Positions 3,643 to 51,773 of a DNA stretch of 64,000 nt are shown one piece after another. Position 1 is the first letter of the stretch. Every line of letters begins with the position of its first letter. Source of the DNA: Deltaproteobacteria bacterium (GTDB lineage: Bacteria; Desulfobacterota; Dissulfuribacteria; Dissulfuribacterales; QOAL01); assembly GCA_026992735.1 (NCBI GenBank), contig JALWYO010000020.1, positions 10,054 to 74,053 of the forward strand, in the 5' to 3' direction. The notes beneath the pieces were generated by a model. It was not told the origin of the DNA. It worked only from the letters and a program-made list of their open reading frames with translations, and searched no databases. A program made the translations under genes and the position numbers.

Positions 3643-5254
3643 CTTCTGTTACCTCCCCTCTTCCTGGAATCGGTTCACCTCGCAGGTTAAGACTTCGATC
3701 ATTTTCCCCTTCCATGATCAATGCATTGGCAACCAACTCCGAGACTCCACAGACATCCACTCCTGGCACCCAGTATTCCATGGAAGCGGGAAGAACCGCT
3801 CTGTCAATGGCGCATACACAGGAGAGCATGTTTACCCCGAAACGCTCATGGACATACTTGACTGCATTGGCCCTGGGTAATCCGCCCCTCAGCCTGAGTT
3901 CCATGTCCTCACCTGCATTCAGACCCGCACCGCTTCCACAGCAGAAGGTCTGTTCCCTGATGGTATTCTCAGGCATGTCATAAAAATTATTACATACGTT
4001 CTTGATCACATACCTGGGCTCCTCGAACATGCCCATGCCACGGGAGGGATTGCAGGAGTCATGATATGTCACCTTCAAATGGTCATTCCTGCTGGGGTCC
4101 AGCTTAAGCTTGTTGTGCTTTATTAGGTCAGCAGTGAATTCTGTAAGGTGGACCATCTTGGCCGACTTGGCGTTTTCAAACTTGGTACCAGTAATAGGAG
4201 ATACCGGTTCTTCAAGGAAATCCGGGGGACCGTTGAAGGTGTTCATGTACTGATGGACCACGCGCCACATGTGCCCACACTCACCACCGAGTATCCACTT
4301 GACGCCCAGTCTCTTGGCCTCCGCATATATCTTTGCATTCAGCCGCTGGGCCATATCCAGGGAGGTAAAGAAACCGAAGTTTCCTCCCTCACTGTTATAG
4401 GTACTCCAGGTATAATCAAGCCCTATGTGCTCAAAAAGCATCAGATAACCCGCCAGGGTAAAAATGCCTGGCTCTGCGAATACGTCACCAGATGGCGTGG
4501 TGAACAGTATTTCCGCTCCCTTCTTGTTGAAGGGTGGATCGATCTTGATGCCCACGAACTCCTCGATATCCATGCACATGAACTCTATGTTCTGTTTGAA
4601 GGTATGAGGCAACAGGCCGAGATGGTTACCCGTCTCATAACAGTTGGCAACAGGCTCCTGTATCCAGTTTATGTTTAGACCAAACAGGTTGAGGAGTTCC
4701 CGGCCGATTATGGTGACTTCAGCTGTATCTATACCGTATGGACAGAAAAGAGAACAGCGGCGGCACTCCGTACACTGAAACATATAGTACCAGATCTCTT
4801 TCAGCACATCCTCGGTAATCTTCCTACCACCGGCGAGACGCCCAAGTATCTTGCCAGCCTTTGTAAACTCACCCCTGTAAACCGACCTTATGAGCTCGGC
4901 CCTTACCACAGGCATGTTCTTGGGATCGCCAGATCCCAGGAAAAAGTGACACTTGTCAGCGCATGCTCCGCACCGTACGCATATATCCATGAATATTTTG
5001 AAGGAACGATGCTTATCGAGCCTTTCCCTCATCCCTTCCAGGAAAGTCTCCTTCCAGTCCTCGGGAAGCCCCCAGTCTTCCTCCACGGGGCTCCAGACGT
5101 GCCCATTGGGCATCCCGACAATTTCTACCTTTTCCGGCTTGGCAGGATAACAGTAGATGCCCGGCTTAATAACAGTGGGAATGTCCATCCAGTCCCTTGT
5201 TGGGGGACGGAGGTCAATCCGCATCATTTCTTGAGGTGTCAATTCTTTTGCCAT
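3635..5254 (-). CDS. dsrK: DsrK, HdrD-like catalytic FeS subunit with CCG domain
   Basis: 539 aa. Ferredoxin motifs CVRCGACADKC and CTECRRCSLFC. C-terminal CCG motif (TFCCGSGAG). Confidence 0.9.
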   Translation of the reverse strand: MAKELTPQEMMRIDLRPPTRDWMDIPTVIKPGIYCYPAKPEKVEIVGMPNGHVWSPVEEDWGLPEDWKETFLEGMRERLDKHRSFKIFMDICVRCGACADKCHFFLGSGDPKNMPVVRAELIRSVYRGEFTKAGKILGRLAGGRKITEDVLKEIWYYMFQCTECRRCSLFCPYGIDTAEVTIIGRELLNLFGLNINWIQEPVANCYETGNHLGLLPHTFKQNIEFMCMDIEEFVGIKIDPPFNKKGAEILFTTPSGDVFAEPGIFTLAGYLMLFEHIGLDYTWSTYNSEGGNFGFFTSLDMAQRLNAKIYAEAKRLGVKWILGGECGHMWRVVHQYMNTFNGPPDFLEEPVSPITGTKFENAKSAKMVHLTEFTADLIKHNKLKLDPSRNDHLKVTYHDSCNPSRGMGMFEEPRYVIKNVCNNFYDMPENTIREQTFCCGSGAGLNAGEDMELRLRGGLPRANAVKYVHERFGVNMLSCVCAIDRAVLPASMEYWVPGVDVCGVSELVANALIMEGENDRSLNLRGEPIPGRGEVTEDV

Positions 5255-8996: not shown

Positions 8997-9050
8997 GAGA
9001 AAAAATAATATTTAATATCAAAATTGAGTATTTTCTCAATAAAACAAGGT

Positions 9051-9108
9051 TAATGATTTTGGATTAATTTCAACTCAGCAAAAGCTTGTTTAACACGAAA
9101 TACGAAGG
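9051..9108. repeat. interspersed repeat family B, truncated copy
   Basis: TAATGATTTTGGATTAATTTCAACTCAGCAAAAGCTTGTTTAACACGAAATACGAAGG matches 42153-42211 at roughly 53 of 58 positions. Confidence 0.7.
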
Positions 9109-12149: not shown

Positions 12150-12237
12150 GCCGAAGTGGCGGAATTGGTAGACGCGCTAGATTCAGGATCTAGTGGGAGC
12201 TATTCCCGTGGGAGTTCGAATCTCCCCTTCGGCACCA
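12150..12237 (+). tRNA. tRNA-Leu (anticodon CAG), CCA encoded
   Basis: Acceptor stem GCCGAAG/CTTCGGC. Anticodon arm CTAGA-TTCAGGA-TCTAG. Long variable arm. T arm GGGAG-TTCGAAT-CTCCC. Ends in A-CCA. Confidence 0.9.
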
Positions 12238-15616: not shown

Positions 15617-15943
15617 TATCGGATCTTATGCCACACCCCATCTTCAAATATGATTCAAACGAATACCGGTGGATTGGAAAAAGAGGGGGAAAACAGGCTT
15701 TATCTTTCTTAAAAGACGAGCACTATCTAACAGCCATAAATCTACAGAACATGACAACCAATGTCATCAGGACAATATTCAGTACCGCAACAACATATAA
15801 GCCGCACGAGATCTATGGCCTTTTTTGTAACAGGATAGATTCATAAATATATTCCGATCTGCATCCAGCAGAATTATTATTTATCCCCACCAACCGCACC
15901 GTAAATCCGTTTATATAAACCCAGACGGGGTTATAGCCTTAAA

Positions 15944-16123
15944 CCCCCGCCGTGCCGTGTCTGTTGGGTCTATTGAACCTGAGAAGCCTCAGGTGGGTGT
16001 CATTTCCGCTTCCAACGGAAAGGGCTGTTCTCCCTTTCCACTCTTCCACGGAGTTACGACTCCCTTGTACGGGGTGTTGGCTCAACAAACTTGCAACAGC
16101 CCACGAACACAGCAGGGAAATTT
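15944..16123 (-). ncRNA. ssrS: 6S RNA candidate
   Basis: Lies directly downstream of zapA. The minus-strand 5' end AAAUUUCCCUGCUGUGUUCGUGGGCUG resembles the E. coli 6S 5' end (AUUUCUCUGAGAUGUUCG). The 5' and 3' ends form a long closing stem rich in G-U pairs. Length about 180 nt. Ends are approximate. Confidence 0.6.
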
Positions 16124-16993: not shown

Positions 16994-17995
16994 TTATGGA
17001 CAAAAGATACGTTTCTCCTTTGATTGACAATGCCTTGTAAAAGGAGCTATGACAGATCCCGGTTCGCAAATAAAATCTTCCAGGAATGAAAAGGCACCTA
17101 TCACAGAACTCTCACCAATAACTGTCTGTCCACGCAATACCGAGTGGGGGCCGATAGTAACATCACTGCCTATTTCCACCTCGGGTTCTATATAGATAGT
17201 ATCCGGCATGGAAATGGTGACCCCGGCATCCATATGACGTTGTCTGATCCTTTTCAGCAGGACATGTTCGGCCAGAGCCAGCTGGTAACGTGAATTTACC
17301 CCAAGGGATTCTTCCTCATCGGCATATCCGAATGCATGGACAGGCATTCCGGCACGGAGGGCAATACCAACCACGTCTGTAAGATAATACTCCCCCTGAG
17401 CGTTATCACAGCCTAACTTCTGGAGTAAACCAAACACCTCTGGAGAGTTAAGGCAATAGACCCCGGTATTTATCTCTCCTATCTCCTTCTGATGTACACT
17501 GGCATCCTTCTCCTCTACGATGCCTTCAACATCTCCAGACTCATTTCTTATAATCCTGCCATATCCAGCCGGGTCCTTCAACTCTGCAGTAAGCACAGAC
17601 ACCACTGCATTGGACTGCTGATGAGCCATGACAAACCGCTGAATGGTTTTGCTGTGAAAGAGAGGACTATCTCCGCATACCACAAGCATGTTGCCGTGAA
17701 AACCTGAAAAGGCTTCCCTTGTGCAGATAACAGCATGACCTGTACCAAGTTGCTGCTCCTGAAATACCAATCTGGCACCTGATACTGAGACGTAAGACTT
17801 GACAATCCCGCCTCCATGGCCCACCACTATGACCTGACAATCCGGCCTGATACCGGCTCTTTCGAGCATGGTCATAACATGAGCTATCAGGGGCTTGCCC
17901 AGCAGGCAATGCATGACCTTGGGCATATTTGATTTCATCCTAGTGCCCTTGCCGGCAGCAAGGATCACTGCAGAAACATCAGCCTGTATTGACAT
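16994..17995 (-). CDS. GlmU-like sugar-1-phosphate nucleotidyltransferase with a short left-handed beta-helix tail
   Basis: Start at MSIQADV (ATG 17995). LAAGKGTRMKS signature. 333 aa versus about 450 for full GlmU. The upstream part of the 407-aa track ORF is read-through of the MITE. Confidence 0.75.
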   Translation of the reverse strand: MSIQADVSAVILAAGKGTRMKSNMPKVMHCLLGKPLIAHVMTMLERAGIRPDCQVIVVGHGGGIVKSYVSVSGARLVFQEQQLGTGHAVICTREAFSGFHGNMLVVCGDSPLFHSKTIQRFVMAHQQSNAVVSVLTAELKDPAGYGRIIRNESGDVEGIVEEKDASVHQKEIGEINTGVYCLNSPEVFGLLQKLGCDNAQGEYYLTDVVGIALRAGMPVHAFGYADEEESLGVNSRYQLALAEHVLLKRIRQRHMDAGVTISMPDTIYIEPEVEIGSDVTIGPHSVLRGQTVIGESSVIGAFSFLEDFICEPGSVIAPFTRHCQSKEKRIFCP

Positions 17996-18102
17996 AATCG
18001 ATGCTCCCCAATTGCATCTTACTGTAAAACAAGATAGGTATAAATTCTTAGAGGATACATCATACCCGCCTGGAATAACAGGGGGAAACAGGCTCATCCC
18101 GC

Positions 18103-18260
18103 GTAACTGATCACAGGTTCCAATGGGCTTTATTGTATATATTCCCATTCTGTAAGCGCTTGCAGGGTGCCGCAGATATAAGGCGGCGGGCGCGCAGTCG
18201 TACTCCCTGTACTTCAAGCGCCCGCCAACACAGCAGATGCGATGTCCTGTGAGCGCTTAC
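18103..18260 (+). mobile_element. MITE-like hairpin element, copy 1 (158 bp)
   Basis: About 95% identical to 51534-51691. Flanked by the 8-mers CATCCCGC (18095-18102) and CATCCAGC (18261-18268). Terminal inverted repeats GTAACTGATCACAGG / CCTGTGAGCGCTTAC. Confidence 0.8.
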
Positions 18261-18279
18261 CATCCAGCAGTATCCCGAC

Positions 18280-36909: not shown

Positions 36910-38089
36910 GATGAAGCCCCTCGCGCATCTCGGAAAGGTTTGAGATAACTATCCTGTCACCGGGAGACAGTCCGCTCAGTACAGAAACCCACTTCTGCAC
37001 TGGAGCCGCCTGCCCTGATAAAACAGCCAGGACGGGCATGTAACCTGAAGACGTTTTCCTCCACTCCCTGCCTGTCTTTATGAGCCGCCACTTTATGGTG
37101 CCGGACTTGTCCACAGAATAGACACCGGTTATACCTCCCCGTTTAACCACTGCCGGCAATGGCACAACTATGGCCTGGGTTGAGCCTGTATCAAGAAACA
37201 CCCTTCCGAACAGCCCACTCTTCAAATCTGCACGCCCAAGATCAACAAGGATTGTAAAGGTATGGCTCAAAGGCCTTGAAGAACGCTGGACATGCACCGT
37301 CCTGGCCTGCAAGGACATATTGGCAGATGGAATGGACAGGCTGACCATGCCGCCCGGTTTTACCAAGGTATACAGGGCCTCGTCCACGTCGGCCTCAAAC
37401 CAGAAGCCGCTGCCCCTGCCATCCAGGCCTATCAAGGGATGACCCGGATTGATATATGTGCCGGGATCAGCATGCCTTTCAGAAACCCATCCATCAACAG
37501 GGGCCTCTATCCTGACATATAACAGCTGGTTCCTTGCCTCACGGAGCTGAGCCTCTATCCTCCTGATGTTTGCTTTTATGGCCATTACCTTGTTCTTCAT
37601 GGCCGTGTAACTGGTCCTTGCCCTGTCAAACTCGTCTTTTGTAGCAGACTCCTGCCTGTATAGGCGGGAAAACCTGTCAAAATTTATCCTGGAATATTCG
37701 TATTCTGCTGATGCGGCATGGAGTTCAGCGAGCGCCGCCTTTTTTGCTGACACAAGCGCTCTTACCCTGGCCTTGGCATCGGTATCGTCCATAAGCACCA
37801 GCAGATCTCCCTTGTGAACCATGTCGCCGATCTGGACCGGCACTTGCTTAACGTATCCAGGCATCTTGGCAGCAAGGGTGATGGAAACCTTTGACCTGAC
37901 ATGCCCGGGAAAACTCCGCACCCGGGGCAGTGTAACTGGCTCTATCACCATGGTCTCTGCCTTGACTGACGGATGGATACTAACCTCTTCCTTTTTCTTT
38001 TCTCCACTGCAGGCAAACAGAACAAGGAGGCAACTGCACCATACTATCCATCTCATACAGAATCCTGAACTATGCATAATCCCTCTCAA
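36902..38089 (-). CDS. RND efflux periplasmic adaptor (membrane fusion protein, HlyD family)
   Basis: 395 aa. Lipoprotein-like signal (LLVLFACSG), coiled-coil hairpin and beta-barrel regions. Confidence 0.85.
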   Translation of the reverse strand: MRGIMHSSGFCMRWIVWCSCLLVLFACSGEKKKEEVSIHPSVKAETMVIEPVTLPRVRSFPGHVRSKVSITLAAKMPGYVKQVPVQIGDMVHKGDLLVLMDDTDAKARVRALVSAKKAALAELHAASAEYEYSRINFDRFSRLYRQESATKDEFDRARTSYTAMKNKVMAIKANIRRIEAQLREARNQLLYVRIEAPVDGWVSERHADPGTYINPGHPLIGLDGRGSGFWFEADVDEALYTLVKPGGMVSLSIPSANMSLQARTVHVQRSSRPLSHTFTILVDLGRADLKSGLFGRVFLDTGSTQAIVVPLPAVVKRGGITGVYSVDKSGTIKWRLIKTGREWRKTSSGYMPVLAVLSGQAAPVQKWVSVLSGLSPGDRIVISNLSEMREGLHLE

Positions 38090-39666
38090 TGACCAGAACT
38101 GCCGGCTGCATCAATAACTGTACTCAACACGTCCCTGCCCAGGATCCCTGCCTTCCACCTAAGCCTGGACCAGGCCAGCCTTGCATCAAAACGGGCCTTG
38201 GCCTCACTCAACTTGGTCTCCCTTACATTGGTATCCGCGGCCAGAAGCTCCACCATAAGGGCAAGACCGTTTTCGTAACGGTTTCTCAATATGCGCTGAC
38301 TCTCAACAGCCTGCCTTACAGCCTTGTGCATAATCCTGAGCTGCTTTATGGCTGTCTGAAACCCGTAAAAGGCCTTTCGGACCTCGAGTTCTATGCTATC
38401 TTCCACTTCCTTGACCTTTGCTGCCTTTCTTTCTGTCTCAGCGCTGGCAGCAGATATCCGTGCCCTGTCTCCAAAACCGTTAAAGAGATTCATGGACATG
38501 GTTGCCATAAAACTCCAGGAATCACCACCAAAATCAGCAAAGGTCTGCCTGTCCTGCTGATATACACCCTGAAGATTGAAGGAAGGAAGAAAACTAAACA
38601 AGGCCTGTTTGTGCCCGTATTCCGCCATTCTGAGCTCATCTTTTGCCATCAATATCTCGGGCCTGTGTTTTTGGGCCAGCTTAAGCCAGGAATCCAGAAG
38701 CCCTGCATCCTGACTTTCACTGTCAAGCATCTTAAGATCCCATGTCTTGTCCTGGGAGACCCCCATGGCCTTGTCAAGTGCGGCAATGGCCACAAGGAAA
38801 TCGTTCCGAGCCTTGAACAGCTGCCTTTCTACAGAGGTCTTCTGGACATCAGCGCTCAGCACGTCGGACTTGAGTACAAGGCCGGACTCGAAACGCATAC
38901 GCGAAAGTCTCTCGTGGGCAGCAGCAGTCTTAACGGCAGCCTCCAGAACAGCCACGTTCTCCTTTGCCAAGAGTGCCTGGCAATAGGCCTTTTCAACCAT
39001 AAAGAGCACTGCCTGGCCTGCCTGGGTGATACCAAGCCCTGATATATCTTCAGCCAGCACCGAAGTCTTGTACCCTATGTATTCGCTGCCCTGATTAAAG
39101 AGAGGCTGAATCATTACTATCCTGGCCTGCCAGTTGTCACGGTAGTCAGGATCATTTAGTCTATCCACGGCAAAATCCTGACGGGTAAACGCGGTCTGGT
39201 CCAGCTTGCTGCCAAACACCATGACCGGGTTGTTGGACCTGGCGATGCCCGCCTCTATATTTACTTTTGGAAGGAATGCGCTTATAGAACGGTTGACATT
39301 GAAGCCGGCCTTCTTTCTGGAGGCTAAGGCCTGGGTCATGACCGGGTTATTTGCAAGGGCGTTCTGAAAGGCCTGCTCTAAGTCGAGAAGATGTCCATCA
39401 TCCAGACCATAACATGGGGAAACAGCAGGGATCATGGCGAGGACTAACTGTATCAAAAAAACCAATATGGTAAACAGTGTCAGGGTATGCCTGCTGTCTG
39501 GATGCAATATTGGCAACTTCTCAATAAGTCTGTGTAAATTCTCCAGTATCTGTTTACAGGATGCTGCAGATACAAGACGGAGGACGCGCAGGCGTACTTC
39601 CTGTACTTCAAGCGTCTGACAACGCAGTATATGCGGTATCCTGTGAGCAGATACCAATATTGGCAT
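38086..39666 (-). CDS. TolC-family outer membrane efflux protein carrying an in-frame MITE insertion after codon 4
   Basis: TolC-like repeats throughout. ATG 39666 (MPIL) is preceded by GGAGGAAGGGA. Codons 5-54 are the MITE plus its target duplication. The native signal peptide resumes as PILHPDSRHTLTLFTILVFLIQLVLAMIPAVSPCYG. Alternative restarts are TTG 39507 and ATG 39435. The track ORF starts at 39696. Confidence 0.75.
   Translation of the reverse strand: MPILVSAHRIPHILRCQTLEVQEVRLRVLRLVSAASCKQILENLHRLIEKLPILHPDSRHTLTLFTILVFLIQLVLAMIPAVSPCYGLDDGHLLDLEQAFQNALANNPVMTQALASRKKAGFNVNRSISAFLPKVNIEAGIARSNNPVMVFGSKLDQTAFTRQDFAVDRLNDPDYRDNWQARIVMIQPLFNQGSEYIGYKTSVLAEDISGLGITQAGQAVLFMVEKAYCQALLAKENVAVLEAAVKTAAAHERLSRMRFESGLVLKSDVLSADVQKTSVERQLFKARNDFLVAIAALDKAMGVSQDKTWDLKMLDSESQDAGLLDSWLKLAQKHRPEILMAKDELRMAEYGHKQALFSFLPSFNLQGVYQQDRQTFADFGGDSWSFMATMSMNLFNGFGDRARISAASAETERKAAKVKEVEDSIELEVRKAFYGFQTAIKQLRIMHKAVRQAVESQRILRNRYENGLALMVELLAADTNVRETKLSEAKARFDARLAWSRLRWKAGILGRDVLSTVIDAAGSSGH
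39513..39654 (+). mobile_element. MITE-like hairpin element, copy 2 (142 bp, diverged)
   Basis: Flanked by a perfect 8-bp direct repeat CAATATTG (39505-39512 and 39655-39662). Conserved apical loop GCAGGCGTACTTCCTGTACTTCAA. The stems differ from copies 1 and 3 by compensatory changes. Confidence 0.75.
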
Positions 39667-40004
39667 TTCTATGTCCCTTCCTCCTGAGATATTCATGCAA
39701 TCAGATCATCAACAACGCGCCATAGATTAATCGGACATAGCAGCACATTGCCCGCCAAGGCACGAAACGGCACCGGCATGTATCAAAAAATCCGCTGCTG
39801 ATGCTGAAAACCTTGTTACCAGGCGATATAGCGGCTACCATGACTGGCCATCAGGCTTAAATCAGGAAGATGTATCCCAAGTTTACATCTTCATCCTACA
39901 ATAACAACACTCGGCATAATAAACTAAAAATCTGTTTTCTCAAAACGTAAATAGGCACGATAATACCTTCTCTGTCAGGAGAAACGGCAGAGAGAGCGCA
40001 AAAT

Positions 40005-41786: not shown

Positions 41787-42152
41787 GATATTTTCACCTG
41801 GATTTTAAACATAAGATAGACAAACCAGCCCACATCTGCTGGTATATGACAATGGCTTAACTTGCCATTTTGCAGGATATTCCCCTTTCCATCGACATGT
41901 CAAAAAAACTTTCTGCAGAAACAGACATGAAGCAATGATAAGAGATAAGGATCGAGAGCAGCTTTTCCTGTGACGTATTGCCTTGGAAAAGCCGCCCGCT
42001 GCAAAAGACAGGCAGGCGGCTGACAAGGAAGGCGGAAGTCAGAGAACCTTGCGAAAGGAGGGATTAATAGTTGAGGGGAGTGTTCTCTTCTTCCTTGATC
42101 ACCTTTTACAGACTGTTTTTTTATAACGTAACTTCTCATTATAAATCAGGGA

Positions 42153-42265
42153 TAATGATTTTGGATTACTTTCAGCTCAGTAAAAGCTTGTTTAACACGA
42201 AGTACACGAAGACCACGAAGTGATACTAATATAAATTCTTCGTGTCCTTCGTGAACTTTGTGGTT
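42153..42265. repeat. interspersed repeat family B, full copy with CACGAAG palindrome
   Basis: The first 58 nt match 9051-9108. They are followed by CACGAAGTACACGAAGACCACGAAG ... CTTCGTGTCCTTCGTG, which forms an imperfect hairpin. Confidence 0.7.
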
Positions 42266-44040: not shown

Positions 44041-44137
44041 GCTCGCAAGTTTGCCGAAGATGCAAAGAGGGAGCACGCAGACGTACTTTGGCACTTCAAA
44101 CGCCTAACAACAAATCAGATTCGGTAAACTTGCGAGC
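44041..44137 (+). mobile_element. MITE-like hairpin element, copy 4 (degenerate, hairpin module only)
   Basis: Stem GCTCGCAAGTTTGCCGAA / TTCGGTAAACTTGCGAGC encloses the loop GCAGACGTACTTTGGCACTTCAAACGC, which is homologous to the loop of copies 1-3. No clear target duplication. Confidence 0.5.
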
Positions 44138-51516: not shown

Positions 51517-51533
51517 TGATGATTACCTCGCAG

Positions 51534-51691
51534 GTAACTGATCACAGGTTCCAATGGGCTTTACTGTATATATTCCCATTCTGTAAGCGCTCACAGGGTG
51601 CCGCAGATGTAAGGCGGCGGGCGCGCAGTCGTACTCCCTGTACTTCAAGCGCCCGCCAACACATCAGATGCGGTGCCCTGTGAGCGCTTAC
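51534..51691 (+). mobile_element. MITE-like hairpin element, copy 3 (158 bp)
   Basis: Perfect 8-bp direct repeat CCTCGCAG at 51526-51533 and 51692-51699. Terminal inverted repeats match 12/15. The 109-nt hairpin at 51583-51691 has a 24-nt loop at 51625-51648. Confidence 0.85.
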
Positions 51692-51773
51692 CCTCGCAGG
51701 ATGCATGAAAGCGCTGCCATCCTCTATATTTTCTCTCTGCAGGAAATGGCAGAAAAGCATTCCCGGAGCCATA

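Follow-up and report, generated by a model that had tools for sequence, protein, structure and literature searches.

The stretch analysed here, hereafter the window, comprises 64,000 nucleotides of contig JALWYO010000020.1 (assembly GCA_026992735.1, from a Deltaproteobacteria bacterium) and carries a 142-bp miniature inverted-repeat transposable element (MITE) inside the first codons of a gene for an outer-membrane channel of the OEP/TolC family. This gene is the first of an operon that continues with a membrane-fusion protein (MFP) gene and an RND transporter gene, in the order OEP, MFP, RND. The features at the locus are the following.

38086..39666, minus strand: OEP/TolC-family outer-membrane channel gene, 526 codons from ATG 39666; Pfam PF02321
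36902..38089, minus strand: MFP gene of the same operon; Pfam HlyD_D23 and HlyD_3; syntenic in L001-L008
33658..36909, minus strand: RND transporter gene of the same operon, a 1083-aa open reading frame (ORF); ACR_tran assigned to the same gene in L001
39683-39673, minus strand: Shine-Dalgarno site GGAGGAAGGGA, 6 nt before the ATG at 39666-39664
39916..39943, minus strand: sigma-70-like promoter TTGAGA-16-TATTAT, preceding both the operon and the element
39513..39654, minus strand: 142-bp MITE copy of the short 'B' subtype, with ends GTATCTGCTCACAGG ... TTATTGAGAAGTTGC
39655..39662, minus strand: upstream copy of the target-site duplication, CAATATTG
39505..39512, minus strand: downstream copy of the target-site duplication, CAATATTG, containing the in-frame TTG 39507
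39406..39504, minus strand: original signal-peptide coding sequence (HPDSRH, the hydrophobic core TLTLFTILVFLIQLVLAMIPAV, then SPCYG)

The channel protein matches the OEP model PF02321 in two stretches (E = 1.7e-53), and these two OEP repeats, together with the adjoining MFP and RND genes, place it among the TolC/OEP outer-membrane factors. Read along the minus strand, the beginning of the gene runs ATG (39666-39664), a single C, CAATATTG (39662-39655), the 142 bp of the element (39654-39513), a second CAATATTG (39512-39505) and then CAT CCA GAC. The chance of an exact 8/8 duplication match at the boundaries predicted from the repeat family is ~1.5e-5, and the preliminary description of this DNA, which had reported a 142-bp copy with a perfect 8-bp duplication at this place, proved accurate in sequence, boundaries and coordinates alike. 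The added DNA amounts to 142 + 8 = 150 bp, or 50 codons, and the frame from ATG 39666 stays free of stops; it reads MPIL-VSAHRIPHILRCQTLEVQEVRLRVLRLVSAASCKQILENLHRLIEKL-PILHPDSRH, that is, MPIL, 47 element-encoded residues, PIL and then HPDSRHTLTLF.... Our analysis retains the earlier reading from ATG 39666 with one amendment, namely that the longest ORF has 536 aa and begins at ATG 39696, 30 nt above, a codon that is without a Shine-Dalgarno site and is also the start used by the public annotation. Other in-frame starts lie at TTG 39507-39505 and ATG 39435-39433.

The inserted DNA belongs to a repeat family with two further copies in the window, both intergenic.

18103..18260, minus strand: copy A, canonical, 158 bp, between the terminator hairpin of atpC and a GlmU-like nucleotidyltransferase gene
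51534..51691, minus strand: copy C, canonical, 158 bp, between mreB and a GT2 glycosyltransferase gene

Copies A and C are 95% identical to each other and are flanked by 8-bp duplications of their own, GCTGGATG/GCGGGATG for copy A (7/8; 18261-18268 and 18095-18102) and CTGCGAGG for copy C (8/8; 51692-51699 and 51526-51533). The copy in the channel gene is 81-82% identical to these two over the 93-103 nt that align, and 91-95% identical to copies in the metagenome-assembled genome (MAG) S015_17. The S015_17 copies again carry separate 8-bp duplications: GGAGACAA at L071 (8/8) and, at L054 and L012, two that agree at 7/8 positions (TTTCATGC/TTTCAGGC and ATTTTTTC/ATTTTTTT), which upholds the interpretation of the repeated octamer in the channel gene as a target-site duplication. 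The 142-bp subtype, whose ends are GTATCTGCTCACAGG ... TTATTGAGAAGTT(A/G)C, is mobile as a unit of its own, with other duplication-flanked copies elsewhere. The proposed identity as a MITE was likewise correct, except that the copy in the gene represents a shorter, diverged 142-bp subtype of an element that is canonically ~160 bp long.

Scanning with a 20-nt core motif, one genome per species, located the family at more than 115 loci, a lower bound among the matches listed, and it is to these listed loci that the counts of copies given below refer. Nearly all of them come from MAGs labelled Seep-SRB2, Deltaproteobacteria, Thermodesulfobacteriota or Thermodesulfobacteriaceae, and a single MAG contains at least 19. 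Blastn across the loci recovered 140 copies, which are 108-186 bp long and without a transposase gene; 8-bp duplications agreeing at 7/8 or better were present in 40 of the 103 assessable copies, all different in sequence and mostly AT-rich. The canonical element (~159-160 bp) starts GTAAGCGTTCACAGGG, carries an inverted copy of this end at about position 108 and closes with a third copy, ...CCCGTGAACGGTTAC. Its three ends delimit a 108-bp near-perfect palindromic core and a ~50-bp extension closed by the third inverted repeat, and GTAAGCGTTCACAGGG ... CCCGTGAACGGTTAC form the terminal inverted repeats of canonical copies. Folded as RNA, the core of a canonical copy (e.g. window 51587-51695) gives a hairpin of -66 kcal/mol (z = -6.1). 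Core-only copies of 108-109 bp with duplications of their own were seen at L044, L090 and L093, and the canonical element gives the impression of one mobile unit nested in another.

IS66 elements are recognised by inverted repeats that begin with GTAAGCG and by direct repeats of 8 bp (PMC11946415), and the canonical family shows both, which suggests that an IS66-type transposase mobilises it. The present elements differ from IS66-family members in being without a transposase and in their unusual three-end layout. Other short elements at the sampled loci end in GTAAGCGTTCACAGG and have interiors rich in GGTTCA-type repeats (L028:1382, L063:1304, L103:423 and 4058, L078:2705); this suggests that several non-autonomous families use one same transposase.

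The preliminary description had proposed a comparison of the gene with its orthologs in related genomes, and in that comparison the 50-codon segment was missing from all 20 orthologs aligned (415-513 aa; 49-68% identity over the alignment). Outside the species cluster, no database protein exceeds 71% identity (BLASTP), and the closest OEP relatives come from MAGs labelled Thermodesulfatator or Thermodesulfobacteria; the window sequence matches GCA_027037655.1, and its housekeeping genes are 74-79% identical at the DNA level to contigs of Seep-SRB2 MAGs. Four of the ortholog loci (L002, L003, L005 and L007) are syntenic and have the same divergent TPR-methyltransferase neighbour. In these four, a GGGAC-type ribosome binding site lies 6-14 nt before the ATG, and the protein begins M-x-H-x-P/F-x-K. 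After removal of the element and one duplicate, the window reads GGAGGAAGGGACATAGAA-ATG-CCA-ATA-TTG-CAT-CCA..., translated as MPILHPDSRHTLTLF.... Since this reconstructed arrangement is that of the syntenic orthologs, ATG 39666 was the ancestral start, and the restored start and ribosome binding site put forward earlier agree with the orthologous start regions. ATG 39666 is probably still the start in use.

The same comparison bears on whether the 50 codons might instead constitute a genuine lineage-specific N-terminal domain, its likeness to the repeat being secondary. The segment is indeed invariant at the protein level in four strains, but only 0-1 substitutions separate the strains within the element, which matches the local background, so this invariance says little. 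Moreover, none of the 20 aligned orthologs has the segment, its DNA is nearly that of intergenic copies in another genome that have their own target duplications, and a perfect 8-bp duplication bounds it. With a multi-copy, duplication-flanked family on one side and 20 orthologs without the segment on the other, the insertion is a mobile one, as first described; a genuine domain is already refuted, and we grant it a negligible probability.

Four assemblies encode channel proteins 99-100% identical to that of the window, and all four strains, as well as one metagenome contig, carry the element, which is thus fixed in the known strains with no presence/absence polymorphism among them. We compared the strains by synonymous differences (pS) and by the ratio of non-synonymous to synonymous change (dN/dS). 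Across the OEP gene, pairwise pS was 1-5% and dN/dS was 0.10-0.18, one pair without non-synonymous differences being left out. Of the 25 differences that separate the window from L124, 17 are synonymous, as compared with 23% expected (p = 2e-6), and the window protein keeps every column that shows no variation in the 21-sequence alignment. The OEP gene is under purifying selection with the insertion in place. Within the element the strains differ by 0-1 substitutions in 142 bp, as opposed to 7 in the 124-bp 5' leader of the gene (two strains); with local rates this uneven, the contrast is no safe sign that the element is more constrained than adjacent non-coding DNA. In this leader (39667-39800), the 7 substitutions relative to L124 and L125 are accompanied by an indel near 39791-39802, indicative of either a local tract of recombination or a leader that is hypervariable.

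These data also speak to a less benign outcome, in which the channel gene would be impaired or dead, through blocked export or poor translation, and the operon would use another outer-membrane channel. A 58-residue n-region is unusually long, and structure just after the start codon could depress translation. Furthermore, among the 126 copies examined for this, an ORF of at least 100 aa crosses only 6, and the other five ORFs look spurious; the lone genuine in-gene insertion is the present one, which suggests that such insertions are usually selected against. The low dN/dS and the highly significant synonymous excess in four strains that all inherited the insertion nevertheless argue for a working gene, as do the 476 intact downstream codons, with every column invariant across 21 family members preserved, and the intact and syntenic MFP and RND genes. 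We consider loss of the channel quite improbable. The earlier expectation that the extended protein is likely to be export-defective is not supported, given an insertion common to all four strains and the excess of synonymous changes seen among them.

Where translation begins was assessed from Shine-Dalgarno pairing, computed with the canonical anti-Shine-Dalgarno sequence, which was assumed. Among the in-frame starts, only ATG 39666 has a strong site (-10.3 kcal/mol, compared to -2.7 kcal/mol at TTG 39507 and none at ATG 39696 or ATG 39435). The only strongly hydrophobic stretch spans residues 59-80 from M39666 and aligns with the signal peptides of the orthologs; judged by hand, this core and a small-residue -3/-1 site, C-Y-G, are what a putative cleavable Sec signal peptide would show. 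Cleavage after CYG, between SPCYG and LDD, would fit the -3/-1 rule, and the predicted site aligns with the signal-peptide ends of the orthologs. The added segment contains 8 lysine and arginine residues versus 4 aspartate and glutamate residues, with no second hydrophobic segment. Under the positive-inside rule, a basic extension of this kind is expected to stay on the cytoplasmic side.

The explanation that we consider probable is a tolerated in-frame MITE insertion, with a long precursor made from ATG 39666, exported, and giving the same mature channel as before. An IS66-like 142-bp MITE inserted one base past the ATG of the OEP gene, doubling its target CAATATTG and leaving the reading frame intact. 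The insertion lies ahead of the hydrophobic core, within the n-region of the signal peptide, a part expected to remain cytoplasmic and to be removed by signal peptidase. Ribosomes most likely still initiate at ATG 39666, and since no stop lies between this codon and the body of the gene, the default product would be the long precursor, with a net-positive n-region of ~58 residues. The core would then engage Sec, and cleavage after ...SPCYG would release an unchanged mature channel. Export from such a precursor has parallels, given that long two-part signals with a charged N-terminal extension are exported and functional in autotransporters; the signal of EspP has 55 residues, of which residues 23-55 suffice for targeting (PMC2805444).

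The main rival concerns the start codon. The working start could have moved to TTG 39507, regenerated by the duplication, in which case the protein would begin MHPDSRHTLTLF... with a signal peptide of normal length, and the 54 upstream codons would be a dispensable leader. This TTG is in frame just ahead of the n-region and the hydrophobic core, the N-terminus M-H-P-D-S-R that it would produce resembles the M-x-H-x-P-x-K of the orthologs, a weak GAGAAG motif lies 9-12 nt upstream, and self-pairing of the element could hinder ribosomes arriving from ATG 39666. Purifying selection on the gene is equally compatible with such a start. However, TTG is a weak start codon, its Shine-Dalgarno pairing is far below that of ATG 39666, and ribosomes coming from ATG 39666 would read through it in frame and make the long precursor anyway, unless initiation at 39666 were blocked. 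We therefore regard a shifted start as possible, with a distinctly lower probability than initiation at ATG 39666. The restart downstream of the element that had been suggested previously is weakened: it is possible at TTG 39507, but the pairing there is poor, and a protein begun at ATG 39435 would lack the signal peptide's hydrophobic core, which fits badly with purifying selection.

Several observations weigh against production of the long precursor from ATG 39666 by a tolerated insertion of an IS66-like element. Self-pairing of the element in the mRNA right after the start codon amounts to -41 kcal/mol (z = -1.6) and could lower initiation at ATG 39666. The predicted signal, with 87 residues, is unusually long and exceeds the 55-residue EspP example. 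Substitution density is uneven several-fold along the locus (0.3-0.4% in the MFP gene and 1.1-1.8% in the OEP gene), and some of the polymorphism may have arrived via recombination, which would make the argument from dN/dS somewhat weaker. The search turned up no empty-site allele, and no close relative lacking the insertion at more than 71% identity: the reconstructed empty junction AAATGCCAATATTGCATCCAGACA had no match in metagenome_contigs, while the occupied junction had one match there, in a contig from a JGI metagenome that is identical to the window. A pre-insertion allele would read ATGCCAATATTGCATCC; since no empty allele was found, the state before insertion is reconstructed, not observed. 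The copy in the gene begins GTATCTG, not GTAAGCG, its ends having drifted to GTATCTG... and ...GAGAAGTTGC (left end GTATCTGCTCACAGG, right end degenerate). Finally, the 0.84 Mb of sampled loci yielded no autonomous IS66-type partner whose ends match; 13 extra end-like sites are present there, none of them bounding a transposase-sized ORF.

The open frame of the inserted copy is a property of its subtype. In the orientation found here, all copies of the 142-bp subtype have 0, 0 and 3 stops in their forward frames. As 142 + 8 = 150, every insertion of this subtype keeps the downstream frame, and as two of its three forward frames are stop-free, two of three insertion phases read through. The earlier statement that exactly 50 codons without a stop were added is thus correct, but the surprise it implied is misplaced, since an open reading of this kind needs no special explanation. 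The canonical copies of 158-162 bp, for comparison, are mostly closed by stops whichever forward frame is read, and their lengths follow no 3n-8 rule. The ORFs that run through copies are read-throughs of ~100-170 codons with a spurious look. A specially weak hairpin in the gene's own copy was also considered and rejected, the whole subtype folding at -41 to -47 kcal/mol as against -66 kcal/mol for the canonical copy. From the same properties (3n length with the duplication, two stop-free frames and a weakened hairpin) one might suppose the 142-bp subtype to be a coding-compatible MITE lineage, making an extended arginine-rich signal peptide that alters channel targeting or translation. We find this supposition doubtful; a second copy, described next, would in that case hint at recurrent selection.

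That copy lies at L002:2367-2505 (GCA_054007995.1), a locus whose OEP protein is 71% identical to that of the window. It is of the 142-bp-type subtype, has the same orientation, and is placed downstream of the conserved promoter-like motif but ahead of the ribosome binding site; its flanks, TTGATGGG/TTAATAGA, agree at 5/8 positions. Descent of the L002 and window copies from one ancestral insertion was rejected on three grounds: the two copies have different flanking duplications; that in L002 precedes the ribosome binding site and ATG of its gene instead of following them; and the intergenic DNA around the copies cannot be aligned, even though the elements themselves are 82% identical. We judge the L002 copy to be an independent insertion, which may stem from a target hot spot in this place or from selection that recurred at the operon's 5' end.

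Further upstream, the promoter-like TTGAGA-16-TATTAT motif is kept, as read by eye, in the intergenic regions of all four syntenic loci. In the window the element lies downstream of this motif, and no terminator-like site was found in the region. A sigma-54-like motif, TGGCAC-N5-ATGCA, was also noticed by eye; it precedes the OEP start by 40-75 nt in L002 and L003 and is weaker in L005. The window has TGGCGGGCAATGTGCT at the corresponding place (~39742-39757, minus strand), and L007 is without the motif.

In-frame fusions of MITEs or palindromic repeats with host genes have been described as "not unusual" in a 2024 review, which singles out the Rickettsia palindromic elements (RPEs) for their frequency (PMC10969869); according to Ogata et al. 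2000, as relayed in that review, nearly half of the copies in three RPE families sit in genes. The comparison with RPEs that accompanied the first description holds well as an analogy. RPEs and the present elements are alike small, palindromic and mobile repeats of ~150 bp and, as far as the review's account of RPEs extends, both occur in protein-coding genes, in frame and stop-free, adding ~50 residues to a host gene that stays functional. Unlike RPEs, which enter genes frequently, the present family did so in 1 of the 126 copies examined, and a frame-compatible, stop-free length is found in its 142-bp subtype only. It also has IS66-type ends and 8-bp duplications, a sequence relationship is not expected, and the present insertion affects a signal peptide, a removable part, instead of the mature fold. 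The case is an in-frame intragenic MITE of a known sort and an exception within its own IS66-like family.

Two other groups of systems offer likenesses. ERIC, BOX, Correia and Anabaena MITEs are non-autonomous, mostly intergenic, often near gene ends and occasionally fused in frame to ORFs (PMC10969869), but they represent other families in other hosts; our literature search found no description of an insertion into a signal-peptide n-region. It likewise found no description of the present family in Seep-SRB2 or Thermodesulfobacteriota. The ESPR signals of autotransporters and two-partner secretion proteins resemble the predicted precursor in having a charged N-terminal extension ahead of a normal n-h-c signal (PMC2805444). 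The ESPR, however, is a conserved motif of ~25 residues, in contrast to the 50 transposon-derived residues here.

Current understanding is not overturned by these findings. They do provide a clean natural example of where a coding insertion can do no harm, in that 50 foreign residues can be added to the n-region of a signal peptide that is cleaved off without necessarily affecting the mature protein. They also indicate that the public 536-aa gene call includes transposon-derived residues and a wrong start, and that the family seeds spurious ORFs elsewhere. One such case is the GlmU-like ORF at 16994-18217 (407 aa, TTG start), which begins inside copy A and has its Pfam domain only from residue 83; the 5' end of this extended ORF is probably an artefact of the repeat.

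Outside the channel gene, most copies are intergenic, often a few codons from the end of a gene or at a ribosome binding site. The duplication of copy C, CTGCGAGG, includes the GAGG ribosome binding site of the GT2 gene (ATG 51516), which has been doubled as a result, and the L071 copy (4679-4820) has likewise duplicated GGAGACAA directly ahead of an ATG; insertions appear to favour translation-start regions. Orientation is biased as well: across L002-L123 and the window, and with crude gene calls, the extension end points towards gene starts in 60 cases and towards gene ends in 28 (p = 8e-4), and for the GTAAGCG end the figures are 58 for gene ends and 31 for gene starts (p = 6e-3). Seep-SRB2-type bacteria are the sulfate-reducing partners in methane-oxidising consortia. 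The family is abundant in such partners and, given its position at translation-start regions and its orientation bias, may influence expression in these genetically intractable organisms.

Copies were also encountered on short, low-coverage contigs of MAGs labelled 'archaeon' or 'Halobacteria archaeon' (L024, L082, L088 and L092), contigs that were most likely mis-binned from the bacterial partner in methane-seep consortia. Within the window, a degenerate palindrome at 44052-44125 is 75% identical over 76 nt to the element core and may be an old, decayed copy or a member of a related family. A direct repeat of 65 nt, 89% identical between its two intergenic copies (9039-9103 and 42141-42205), is unrelated to the MITE and has no Rfam match at the gathering threshold. 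The Rfam scan matched no family to the MITE except for a sub-threshold chance match to a microRNA hairpin model; elsewhere in the window it identified, at the gathering threshold, a 6S RNA at 15940-16121 (minus strand, 74 bits) and a tRNA at 12150-12234 (plus strand).

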